In this document: in pieces, positions 20,592 to 23,247 of the stretch
Layout of the letters: the number at the start of each line of letters is the position of its first letter
Position numbering within the stretch: the first letter of the stretch is position 1
The notes under the pieces: generated by a model
Databases searched by the model: none
The model's input: the letters and a program-made list of their open reading frames with translations, nothing else
What the model was told of the DNA's origin: nothing
Program-made: the position numbers and the translations under genes
Source: Shigella phage SP21535
Direction: 5' to 3' (one strand)
Length of the DNA: 64,000 nt
Sequence record: PQ615101

Positions 20592-21620
20592 ATGTCATCA
20601 ATACCTTGGATTGATAATGAGTTTGCATATCGTGCGCTAGCTCATTTACCTAAATTCACACAAGTAAATAATAGTTCAACTTTTAAATTACGGTTTAGAT
20701 GCCCTGTTTGTGGAGATTCAAAAACCGATCAAAATAAAGCCCGTGGATGGTATTATGGTGATAACAATGAAGGAAATATTCATTGTTATAACTGTAACTA
20801 TCATGCACCAATCGGAATATATCTAAAGGAGTTTGAACCTGATTTATATCGTGAGTATATCTTTGAAATAAGAAAAGAAAAAGGTAAAAGTCGTCCAGTA
20901 GAAAAACCTAAAGAACTTCCTAAACAACCTGAGAAGAAAATAATTAAATCTCTTCCGTCATGTGTTAGATTAGATAAACTGGCGGAAGACCATCCAATTA
21001 TAAAATATGTAAAAGCTCGTTGTATTCCAAAGGATAAATGGAAATATCTTTGGTTTACAACCGAATGGCCTAAATTGGTTAATAGCATAGTACCGGGAAC
21101 ATATAAAAAGGAAATTTCTGAGCCTCGTCTTGTTATTCCAATTTATAATGCTAATGGAAAGGCTGAGTCTTTTCAAGGACGCGCATTAAAGAAAGATGCT
21201 CCACAAAAGTATATCACCATCAAAGCTTATCCTGAGGCAACAAAAATCTATGGAGTCGAACGAGTTAAAGATGGTGATGTATATGTTCTAGAAGGACCTA
21301 TAGATTCACTTTTTATTGAAAATGGTATAGCCATTACGGGTGGTCAATTAGACCTAGAAGTTGTTCCATTTAAAGATAGACGAGTGTGGGTCTTAGATAA
21401 TGAACCTCGTCACCCTGACACTATTAAACGAATGACTAAATTAGTTGATGCAGGAGAAAGGGTTATGTTTTGGGATAAATCTCCCTGGAAATCAAAAGAT
21501 GTTAATGATATGATTAGAAAGGAAGGTGCAACCCCTGAACAAATTATGGAATATATGAAAAATAATATTGCCCAGGGGTTAATGGCTAAAATGCGGTTAT
21601 CTAAATATGCTAAGATTTAA
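20592..21620 (+). CDS. 61: DNA primase gp61
   Basis: 342 aa; zinc ribbon CPVCGDS...CYNCNYH; Toprim-like C-terminal region. Confidence 0.9.
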   Translation: MSSIPWIDNEFAYRALAHLPKFTQVNNSSTFKLRFRCPVCGDSKTDQNKARGWYYGDNNEGNIHCYNCNYHAPIGIYLKEFEPDLYREYIFEIRKEKGKSRPVEKPKELPKQPEKKIIKSLPSCVRLDKLAEDHPIIKYVKARCIPKDKWKYLWFTTEWPKLVNSIVPGTYKKEISEPRLVIPIYNANGKAESFQGRALKKDAPQKYITIKAYPEATKIYGVERVKDGDVYVLEGPIDSLFIENGIAITGGQLDLEVVPFKDRRVWVLDNEPRHPDTIKRMTKLVDAGERVMFWDKSPWKSKDVNDMIRKEGATPEQIMEYMKNNIAQGLMAKMRLSKYAKI

Positions 21621-21817
21621 ATTAACCCAACTAAAGCAAATGCTAAATCTACGAATGTATCAAGAGTAACTACTGGAATACTAACGCCATGAGCAATAGC
21701 AACTGGCGATAAAACAAAATTCCAAAGTAAAATTCCTATCATAGCAGAAATAGTAAAAGCTATACGTTTCTTATTACCTTTGATGGCATTAACAAGTGCC
21801 ATTAATTTTTGTACCAT
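21617..21817 (-). CDS. small hydrophobic (membrane) protein, antisense to the early transcription direction
   Basis: 66 aa; strong SD AAGGAGGA 5 nt upstream of ATG on the minus strand; convergent with gene 61. Confidence 0.5.
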   Translation of the reverse strand: MVQKLMALVNAIKGNKKRIAFTISAMIGILLWNFVLSPVAIAHGVSIPVVTLDTFVDLAFALVGLI

Positions 21818-21852
21818 ATGTCCTCCTTTAAATTAATATTTATCATAAATTT

Positions 21853-21882
21853 GTTTACTTTCTCAGCTTGTTATGGTATTAT
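21853..21882 (+). promoter_or_regulatory. T4-type early promoter
   Basis: GTTTAC, 18-bp spacer, TATTAT. Confidence 0.6.
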
Positions 21883-21907
21883 AAAATAAATTGCTGAGGA
21901 TGATATA

Positions 21908-22468
21908 ATGATTAATAAAATTGTGCATGAAATGGCTTTAAACGGAGATTCATATAAAATATCTGCCGTAGTTGAAAATTTCATACTTAATAAAGTAAAA
22001 GAATATTTCACTGATTGTTCAGTTAGTTATCAAGAAAAAATGGTTTTAACCGATGATACTGAAAAATCAAATAATTTGTTTTGTTCTAATTTTATAACTA
22101 AGAAGCGTACTAGAAGATTTGATATTGTTATTTCTCGCAACGGTAAAAAGCATATAATTGAAATTAAACACCAAGTTGGTGGAGGTACAGCTATTGATTC
22201 GGTTGGAATATATTTAGAAGATAAAGAGAAATTAAAAGAATACACAAAAACTGAAAACCCTGTGTCATTGATGATATTAGATTTTTTGCCATGCGGATAT
22301 TATCCACGTAATAAATGGACAAAAAGAGAATCATTTACTGATAATCCAACCATCCAAGCAAGGTTTAATGAATATGCTAAATCACAAAACGTGTTAGTAT
22401 TACTATCAAATACATATGATGAAGAATTATATAATTCGTTTTTTGCTGCAATAAATGAGAGAATATAA
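21908..22468 (+). CDS. PD-(D/E)xK nuclease-like protein, translationally coupled to dam
   Basis: 186 aa; RRFDIVISR ... HIIEIKHQ gives D-x12-E-x-K spacing; stop overlaps dam start (TAATG). Confidence 0.45.
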
Positions 22469-23247
22469 TGCTAGGAGCTATCGCGTATACAGGTAATAAA
22501 CAGGCATTATTACCTGAACTTAAGCCTCATTTTCCAAAATATGACAGATTCGTGGATTTATTTTGTGGAGGTTTATCAGTGTCCTTGAATGTCAATGGTC
22601 CTGTATTGGCCAATGATATTCAAACACCAATTATTGAAATGTATAAATGTCTTATTGATATATCATGGGATGACGTATTAAAAGTAATAAAGCAATACAA
22701 ACTATCAAAAACATCAAAAGAAGAGTTTTTGAAATTACGTGAAGATTATAATAAAACTAGAGATCCTCTTTTACTTTATGTTCTTCATTTTCACGGGTTT
22801 AGTAATATGATTCGTATAAACGATAAAGGAAATTTTACTACTCCGTTTGGAAAAAGAACTATAAACAAAAATAGTGAAAAACGCTTTAATCACTTTAAAC
22901 AAAATTGTGATAAAATAATCTTTAGTTCATTGCATTTTAAAGATGTCAAAATTCTAGACGGCGATTTTGTATATGTAGATCCTCCGTATCTTATAACAGT
23001 TGCTGATTATAATAAATTTTGGTCAGAAGAAGAAGAAAAAGACCTTTTAAATCTTTTAGACTCTTTAAATGACAGAGGAATAAAATTTGGACTGTCGAAT
23101 GTTTTAGAGCATCACGGAAAGGAAAATACTCTTCTTAAAGAATGGTCTAAAAAATATAATGTTAAGCATCTTAATAAAAAATACGTCTTTAACATATATC
23201 ATTCCAAAGAAAAGAATGGAACTGATGAAGTATATATTTTTAATTAA
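22468..23247 (+). CDS. dam: DNA adenine methyltransferase Dam
   Basis: 259 aa; FxGxG-like FCGG and DPPY motifs; near-identical to T4 Dam as recalled. Confidence 0.9.

Follow-up and report, generated by a model that had tools for sequence, protein, structure and literature searches.

The 64,000-nucleotide (nt) stretch of Shigella phage SP21535 (record PQ615101) analyzed here, hereafter the window, includes the early region gene 41-dmd-sp-61-dam-56-soc in its Tequatrovirus form, phage IME537 being the nearest record (99.2%). Between the DNA primase gene 61 and dam, which is followed by gene 56, lie two open reading frames (ORFs). The first, ORF66, encodes a 66-amino-acid (aa) small membrane protein on the minus strand, and its stop overlaps that of gene 61 tail-to-tail. 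The second, ORF186, encodes a 186-aa protein on the plus strand and has one base in common with the next gene, its TAA and the ATG of dam forming TAATG at positions 22466-22470. The dam gene itself is ~96% identical to that of T4, occupies the same map position, and has a T4 counterpart annotated as GATC-specific in the T4 record. We report that ORF186 is very probably a PD-(D/E)xK nuclease functionally tied to Dam, and we favor, with more reserve, the view that ORF186 and dam make up an early-expressed cassette of the restriction-modification (R-M) type, probably GATC-specific, of which the Dam of T4 would be the orphaned remnant. ORF66 and the nuclease/dam cassette are two unrelated matters.

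Both ORFs had been singled out in an original prediction made from the bare sequence, which pointed to a strong Shine-Dalgarno (SD) sequence ahead of ORF66 and to a D-x12-E-x-K pattern in ORF186. Both features are indeed there: AAGGAGGA stands 3 nt ahead of the ORF66 ATG, and D72 of ORF186 is followed 12 residues on by E85-I-K87 (Table 1). Judged from ratios of nonsynonymous to synonymous substitution (dN/dS) of 0.15-0.33 for ORF186 and its full-length homologues, which are found at 32-63% identity, and of 0.10-0.23 for ORF66 among Tequatroviruses, both are under purifying selection and are genuine genes, not chance reading frames.

Table 1. Genes and sequence features at the gene 61-dam locus, in window coordinates
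Feature	Position	Strand	Basis or remark
Gene 61 (DNA primase)	20592..21620	+	342-aa ORF, near-identical to T4 gp61
ORF66, small membrane protein gene (66 aa)	21617..21817	-	PHROG 2024
SD sequence AAGGAGGA of ORF66 (plus strand TCCTCCTT)	21821..21828	-	Direct sequence reading
Late-promoter-like GATAAATA upstream of ORF66	21837..21844	-	T4 consensus TATAAATA; putative promoter
Segment missing in T4 (539 bp in the window)	21845..22383		Alignment with T4
T4-type early promoter GTTTAC-N15-TGG-TATTAT for ORF186 (and dam)	21853..21882	+	Pattern scan; also generic promoter scan
ORF186, PD-(D/E)xK type IIP restriction-endonuclease-like gene	21908..22468	+	PHROG 8706
Putative catalytic hairpin of ORF186 (D72, 22121-22123; E85, 22160-22162; K87, 22166-22168)	22121..22168	+	Invariance, hhalign
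G93-T-A-I-D-S98 of ORF186, candidate DNA-recognition element	22184..22201	+	Invariant in family
dam, Dam-family (D12) N6-adenine methyltransferase	22468..23247	+	Pfam PF02086, 1.9e-50
GTTTAC-N15-TGG-TAxxxT copies	12460, 19199, 21853, 24514, 31574, 36392, 40676, 41182	+	T4 early-promoter signature

ORF186 is labeled "hypothetical protein" in all records, and PHROG 8706 is a group of unknown function. Structure prediction against PD-(D/E)xK families, which the original prediction had proposed as a check, gives a nuclease fold of that superfamily. The AlphaFold2 model, obtained with six family members (predicted local distance difference test score [pLDDT] 80.3; predicted template modeling score 0.79), has the alpha-beta-beta-beta-alpha-beta core of PD-(D/E)xK nucleases, and every Foldseek match at E < 0.05 is a nuclease of this kind. 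In structure comparison, the similarity to the EcoRI/MunI family spans the whole subunit, and an independent BFVD model of the 63%-identical protein of phage MX01 superposes on that of ORF186 with a template modeling score of 0.92. The acidic residue on strand 2 and the (D/E)-x-K on strand 3 that characterize the superfamily correspond to D72, E85, and K87. These 3 residues, together with E23, H88, and Q89, are invariant in 8 out of 8 family members, down to 32% identity, and so is the segment G93-T-A-I-D-S98.

Motifs were compared with those of MunI, EcoRI, and DpnII after the 3 sequences had been verified. In hhalign, D72/E85/K87/Q89 of ORF186 fall in register with D83/E98/K100/Q102 of MunI (E 0.023), and the hairpin falls in register with D201/E214 of DpnII. 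By eye, and not in a computed alignment, the E-x-K-[HR]-Q of the family followed by G-[NT]-A-x-[ED]-x resembles EAKHQG...GNAIER of EcoRI and EIKRQDG...GNAHER of MunI, with GTAIDS sitting where GNAIER and GNAHER stand; the likeness to EcoRI stays a visual observation because hhalign against EcoRI gave just an irrelevant C-terminal match. The GNAxER motif, through which EcoRI and MunI read an AATT core, is absent from the ORF186 family, and with GTAIDS in its place, recognition of AATT is not expected.

Sequence searches point to the same broad class of enzymes. A Pfam scan of 6 family members returned sub-threshold matches only, all of them to restriction or PD-(D/E)xK families: DpnII in 4 of the 6 (best 8.3e-5), BanI in 4 of the 6, and in addition PDDEXK_11 and SfsA. 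The match to the DpnII family (PF04556) stays below the gathering threshold (16.8 bits versus 23) over profile positions 152-235 of 278, and hhalign of the ORF186-family alignment against 16 DpnII-family proteins gives a probability of 36% and an E value of 3.8e-4 over 34 columns around the catalytic hairpin. No Pfam match to EcoRI or MunI was obtained, searches of PDB sequences, whether by single protein or by family profile, returned nothing relevant, and an NCBIfam scan yielded noise only. Among proteins considered as relatives, the 765-aa repeat protein P0049 was an artefact of the exhaustive profile search described below, and P0008 and P0010 were discarded as artefactual chimeras.

The strongest evidence on the function of ORF186 is its linkage to Dam. 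Wherever the neighborhood of a homologue is visible, a D12/Dam methylase gene comes next, and its start falls inside the nuclease gene or right where that gene ends, with a 0-nt gap at loci L004-L007 and with overlaps of 1 nt in the divergent T4-like contig L003, 7 nt in Klebsiella Jiaodavirus KPV15, 20 nt in L010, and 35 nt in L009. Among the homologue loci examined, an ORF186 homologue without an adjacent Dam gene was never seen. The pair occupies three genomic contexts, namely, between genes 61 and 56, directly upstream of rIIA (L010), and between denB and ndd (KPV15), and in every one of them the 2 genes show the adjacency and the inheritance as a unit that characterize type II R-M systems. 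Furthermore, the pairwise identities of nuclease and Dam co-vary (r = 0.79), with the nuclease diverging faster. The suggestion that a nuclease-like protein and the methyltransferase form a module is supported by the invariant D/E/K triad, by the Dam adjacency in three contexts, and by deletion scars in phages that carry dam only. In contig L003, an additional 93-aa ORF with a weak MazG-like Pfam match (E 0.0017) lies in the interval between ORF66 and the nuclease gene (4010-4291, plus strand).

With an early-promoter motif directly upstream of it, ORF186 is most likely an early gene with its own promoter, co-transcribed with dam and, in the window, translationally coupled to it. The pattern GTTTAC-N15-TGG-TAxxxT occurs 8 times on the plus strand of the window and 0 times on the minus strand, and each copy is followed 20-35 nt downstream by an SD sequence and an ATG. 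The TAATG overlap from which coupling had originally been proposed holds for the window and not for T2, T4, or phage 107, in which the stop precedes dam by 13 nt. The 2 arrangements follow the length of a T-run at window positions 22438-22443: 6 Ts, as in the window, give the 186-aa form that overlaps dam and agrees with the C-termini of the divergent homologues, and 5 Ts, as in T2, T4, and phage 107, give a 181-aa form ending in SFLLQ; in Bas37, the run is longer. In RB14-type phages, the boundaries of the cassette fall at early promoters, which fits promoter-mediated module shuffling. An inverted repeat, CTCAGC...GCTGAG (21862-21898), flanks the -10 element of the ORF186 promoter, and a deletion in Bas37 begins immediately past its right arm.

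Synteny across T-even genomes, likewise proposed at the outset as a check, revealed genomes with both genes, with neither, or, in a few cases, with dam alone accompanied by scars of the nuclease gene. Counted as records in the phage collection, and approximate as such, both genes are found in about 145-154 Tequatrovirus records, including T2, and dam in about 183; in about 320 records, neither is present, and gene 61 is followed immediately by ORF66 and this by gene 56, the arrangement of RB14. No nuclease gene without dam was seen among the phage records, and the counts leave little room for such genomes. The dam-only genomes display three kinds of lesion in the nuclease gene, with dam intact in each. 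In T4, a 539-bp deletion with a 2-nt TC microhomology at its junction has taken away codons 1-158 of ORF186 along with its early promoter, and the last ~85 nt of the gene are retained, fused directly to the upstream region of ORF66. KarlGJung/Bas37 carries an independent deletion between 8-bp GATGATAT repeats, which leaves codons 122-181, and in G4500 a frameshift, possibly a sequencing error, splits the gene. Of the 2 ORFs, which the original prediction did not recognize from T4, ORF186 is missing there only through deletion, with its 3' end still in place, and ORF66 is present intact but has escaped annotation: the T4 references NC_000866 and AF158101 annotate nothing in the 309 bp that separate dam from gene 61. 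From its sequence context, the solitary dam of T4 looks like the remnant left after deletion of the nuclease gene. A distribution in which the restriction gene is lost, the modification gene is kept, and the restriction gene never stands alone is the classical asymmetry of R-M pairs.

The T2 genome records encode ORF186 intact. The T2 dam entry of 1988, M22342, annotates dam only and, compared with the window, is without one base inside ORF186 (aligned to about window position 22019); the missing base breaks the ORF186 frame and may explain the absence of the ORF from reports of that time. In 1988, Miner and Hattman reportedly described a 536-bp "insertion" 5' of T2 dam without recognizable homology, which we take to be the same indel that carries ORF186. 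Already known, then, are the T2/T4 indel, since 1988, and ORF186 as a "hypothetical protein" in about 150 genomes. New are the assignment of a restriction-enzyme fold, the pairing with Dam, and the recognition of a new sequence family in a known, R-M kind of system; in the literature searched, we found no report that assigns ORF186 such a fold or notes its obligate pairing with Dam.

In the model that we favor, ORF186 would be a compact PD-(D/E)xK endonuclease with the predicted fold of EcoRI/MunI-class type IIP enzymes, probably homodimeric by analogy with MunI, and catalysis would proceed through D72, E85, and K87, probably also with E23 of helix 1. We infer that ORF186 is catalytically active, that it most likely recognizes the site of its partner, GATC, and that Dam methylation most likely blocks cutting; the one indirect pointer to a shared site and to such blocking is the decay pattern, with the nuclease gene lost, the methylase gene kept, and the nuclease gene never seen alone. 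The likely substrate would be cytosine DNA without Dam protection, such as that of competitor phages, plasmids, and under-methylated or dam-minus hosts, and Dam, glucosylated hydroxymethylcytosine (glucosyl-hmC), or both would protect the DNA of the phage itself. T4-like phages would acquire, lose, and relocate the cassette as one piece, and upon its decay the nuclease gene would go first and the methylase survive, which would lead to the solitary dam of T4.

Several observations weigh against an R-M cassette of this kind. E. coli hosts are Dam-positive and hence offer little host substrate to a GATC enzyme blocked by N6-methyladenine (m6A). T2 dam mutants have been reported to be viable; if so, ORF186 does not kill unmethylated phage DNA containing hydroxymethylcytosine (hmC). 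Under a single early promoter, the nuclease gene comes before that of the methylase, which would be hazardous for a cellular R-M system. Since the cassette is absent from two thirds of Tequatroviruses, any benefit must be conditional. With GTAIDS instead of GNAxER as the readout segment, the target site of ORF186 is not readable from sequence; the similarity to DpnII is limited to ~35 residues, lies below the Pfam threshold, and is missing in 2 of the 6 members scanned and in both of the most distant members. An exhaustive hidden Markov model search of 1.84 billion representatives produced 11 matches, none of them named and none a characterized relative, and a scan of IMG/VR added one locus only, which was identical; neither search returned a bacterial relative that would point to a source of the pair. 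Finally, the literature searched holds no biochemical data or phenotype for ORF186.

The Dam-positive state of E. coli is turned to advantage if ORF186 is not blocked by Dam at all but depends on G(m6A)TC, like DpnI, or is indifferent to m6A and blocked by hmC, like Sau3AI. Such an enzyme would serve to degrade host DNA: cytosine DNA of the host and of other sources that has or acquires Dam methylation would be cut, the already methylated E. coli DNA making this substrate abundant, and phage DNA would be spared by the glucosyl-hmC at its GATC cytosines. The early promoter of ORF186 and the position of the KPV15 cassette among the host-shutoff genes denB and ndd are in keeping with this role, and the obligate linkage to Dam is equally compatible with a "mark and cut" pair and with a classical R-M pair. 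We nevertheless consider a nuclease that ignores or requires methylation unlikely, given that the 186 residues of the AlphaFold2 model include no additional methyl-reading domain and that loss of the nuclease with dam kept is the decay expected where the methylase protects against the nuclease. The dispensability of the gene, of which T4, Bas37, and G4500 have no intact copy and most Tequatroviruses none whatsoever, would, like the lack of a phenotype in the literature searched, also fit a relic in which catalysis plays no part or an accessory protein that binds DNA, for instance, a regulator or targeting partner of Dam; these phages would then have no restriction function. However, the purifying selection on ORF186 and the strict invariance of D/E/K and E23 across 32%-identical members are unexpected for a relic or a protein that only binds DNA, and we regard this explanation as improbable.

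A free-standing homing-type endonuclease would fit the clean presence or absence of the cassette at one locus between genomes of ~95% identity, its boundaries there at early promoters, and the location of the homing endonuclease gene segF in the same T4 region. ORF186 would in this case cut the cassette-less 61/56 junction of RB14-type phages during co-infection and thereby spread the cassette into it, and dam would be a passenger or a means of self-protection. The distribution of the pair makes this highly improbable: it is found at three loci and always with Dam, so that function appears to follow Dam and not one target site, and the independence from a partner gene expected of a homing enzyme is nowhere observed. 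The divergence of the nuclease (57-63% identity) equals that of the neighboring primase (61%), which suggests long vertical residence, and T4 lost the gene by internal deletion, not by precise excision. To our knowledge, moreover, the described T4 homing enzymes are of the GIY-YIG or HNH type, unlike the PD-(D/E)xK class of ORF186.

The R-M cassette that we favor has a bolder version, which we put forward tentatively and consider rather doubtful, namely that in T2-type T-even phages a functional GATC restriction enzyme, made early, serves as an offensive weapon against incompletely Dam-protected cytosine DNA. Targets would be competing phages, plasmids, and replicating or dam-deficient host chromosomes, with the phage's own genome doubly shielded. 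Were this true, T4, the laboratory standard, would be a restriction-minus mutant that arose in nature. T2 Dam has been reported to be more active than T4 Dam; this higher activity would then trace to the cassette, as would the methylation of hmC DNA of which T-even Dam is capable and some of the threefold deficit of GATC in these genomes.

GATC is by a wide margin the most depleted palindromic tetranucleotide in the window, with 76 sites observed versus 216 expected under a second-order Markov model (observed/expected ratio 0.35); TCGA is second lowest, with a ratio of 0.69. Positions 21500-23300 contain two GATC sites only, both within dam. The avoidance of GATC by phages of enterobacteria has been attributed to Dam/MutH.

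Among known systems, the MunI/EcoRI class of type IIP enzymes (PDB 1D02 and 1CKQ) is close to ORF186 in size (202 aa versus 186 aa) and in the order of its motifs, the D...E-x-K being followed by [HR]-Q and, as placed by eye, by a G-x-A-x-[ED]-x segment. It differs in that there is no significant sequence similarity, with an hhalign E value of 0.023 for MunI and no relevant match for EcoRI, and in that ORF186 belongs to a virulent phage and is paired with a GATC methylase of the Dam family. In the latter respect the counterpart is the DpnII system of Streptococcus pneumoniae (R.DpnII, PF04556, and DpnM), whose methylase belongs to the same family (Pfam D12); DpnM, E. coli Dam, and phage Dam are members of one methylase family. 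The nucleases share a local profile match, RRFDIVI..IIEIK..GGGTAID in ORF186 and KRFDFVIK..LIEVN..GSGSKLN in DpnII, but ORF186 is 100 residues shorter, about 35-85 of the 278 profile positions are covered, and DpnII has N where the ORF186 family has K87. Chloroviruses encode R-M pairs that degrade host DNA, such as R.CviAI/M.CviAI (GATC), and by analogy the T-even cassette may likewise equip a lytic virus with an early type II endonuclease and its cognate adenine methylase against non-self DNA. Unlike in chloroviruses, T-even DNA is already under glucosyl-hmC protection, and as E. coli carries Dam methylation of its own, the DNA to be attacked must be another population.

In reviews, phage methylases are treated as orphans that serve evasion of host restriction (e.g., PMC12707154). 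T4 Dam is the textbook case of such an orphan, but in about 150 natural relatives, which include T2 and constitute most of the Dam-bearing ones, dam is not an orphan and forms the second gene of a nuclease-methylase pair. The Dam proteins of T4 and T2 are among the most studied DNA methyltransferases, and the question of why phages protected by glucosyl-hmC should carry a GATC methylase, which has had no satisfying answer so far, becomes testable through this pairing, through the deletion scar in T4, and through the movement of the 2 genes between loci as a unit. Genomes with both genes, with the methylase only, and with neither provide a clean natural series for the study of how orphan methylases originate. 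If the proposed function is correct, ORF186 represents a new sequence family of very small type II-like endonucleases, and the cassette is a rare example of an R-M-type system in a strictly virulent phage with hypermodified DNA.

ORF66, the other gene of the interval, is probably a late gene for a small inner-membrane protein, as judged from its sequence and surroundings. In its AlphaFold2 model (pLDDT 77), an amphipathic N-terminal helix (residues 2-12) is followed by a long hydrophobic helix (16-42) and a short C-terminal one (52-63); the hydrophobic core comprises residues 23-41 and is preceded by a KGNKKR stretch. W32, N33, P38, G44, and P48 are kept in divergent homologues of about 24-30% identity. 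Neither Pfam nor NCBIfam gave a match, and the function of PHROG 2024 is unknown. The SD sequence is conserved as AAGGAGGA in T4, RB14, and Bas37, and AGGAGG stands at the same place in L003 and L006. A late-promoter-like octamer is located 19 nt before the ATG, with the sequence GATAAATA in the window and in T4 and AATAAATA in RB14; the divergent contig L003 has the perfect late consensus TATAAATA, L006 a weaker form, and the position is kept amid otherwise unrelated upstream sequences. As about four chance occurrences of an 8-mer like GATAAATA are estimated per strand in 64 kb, this positional conservation alone counts as evidence. In T4 coordinates, ORF66 has the same orientation as late transcription.

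The hydrophobic peptide had originally been viewed as a possible toxin-like or exclusion factor; a role of this kind linked to the nuclease-methylase module is not supported. All three haplotypes have ORF66, as does a more divergent cassette-less phage, and it is always convergent with the primase gene and overlaps its end. Its presence with or without the cassette (T4, RB14, divergent contig) speaks against membership in the module; it is tied instead to the 3' end of the primase gene, and nothing points to a toxin or exclusion role. The label "holin", attached to one 63-aa relative as its UniRef name, has no clear support: ORF66 has one long hydrophobic helix and a late-promoter-like motif, with no lysis gene in its vicinity. 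The T4 copy differs by 4 conservative changes (L002 3239-3439, plus strand; about 17738-17938 of NC_000866). RB69ORF029w, RB32ORF030w, and PHROG 2024 denote the same family, at the same antisense position at the primase 3' end; in RB14, the gene is annotated as RB32ORF030w or "similar to RB69ORF029w", unlike in both T4 reference records. ORF66 is thus a conserved protein-coding gene missing from the T4 reference annotation.

Several other accessory-gene sites in the region are unlike those of T4. Between gene 56 and soc, where T4 has segF (L002 832-1781), the window carries two small ORFs of 66 and 57 aa ahead of soc (23826-24472). A further indel relative to T4 is found at positions 20066-20422, where a 118-aa ORF takes the place of the 208-aa gp61.2 of T4; the RB14 ORF at this site has the same 118-aa length and is annotated as RB32ORF033c ("similar to gp61.2").

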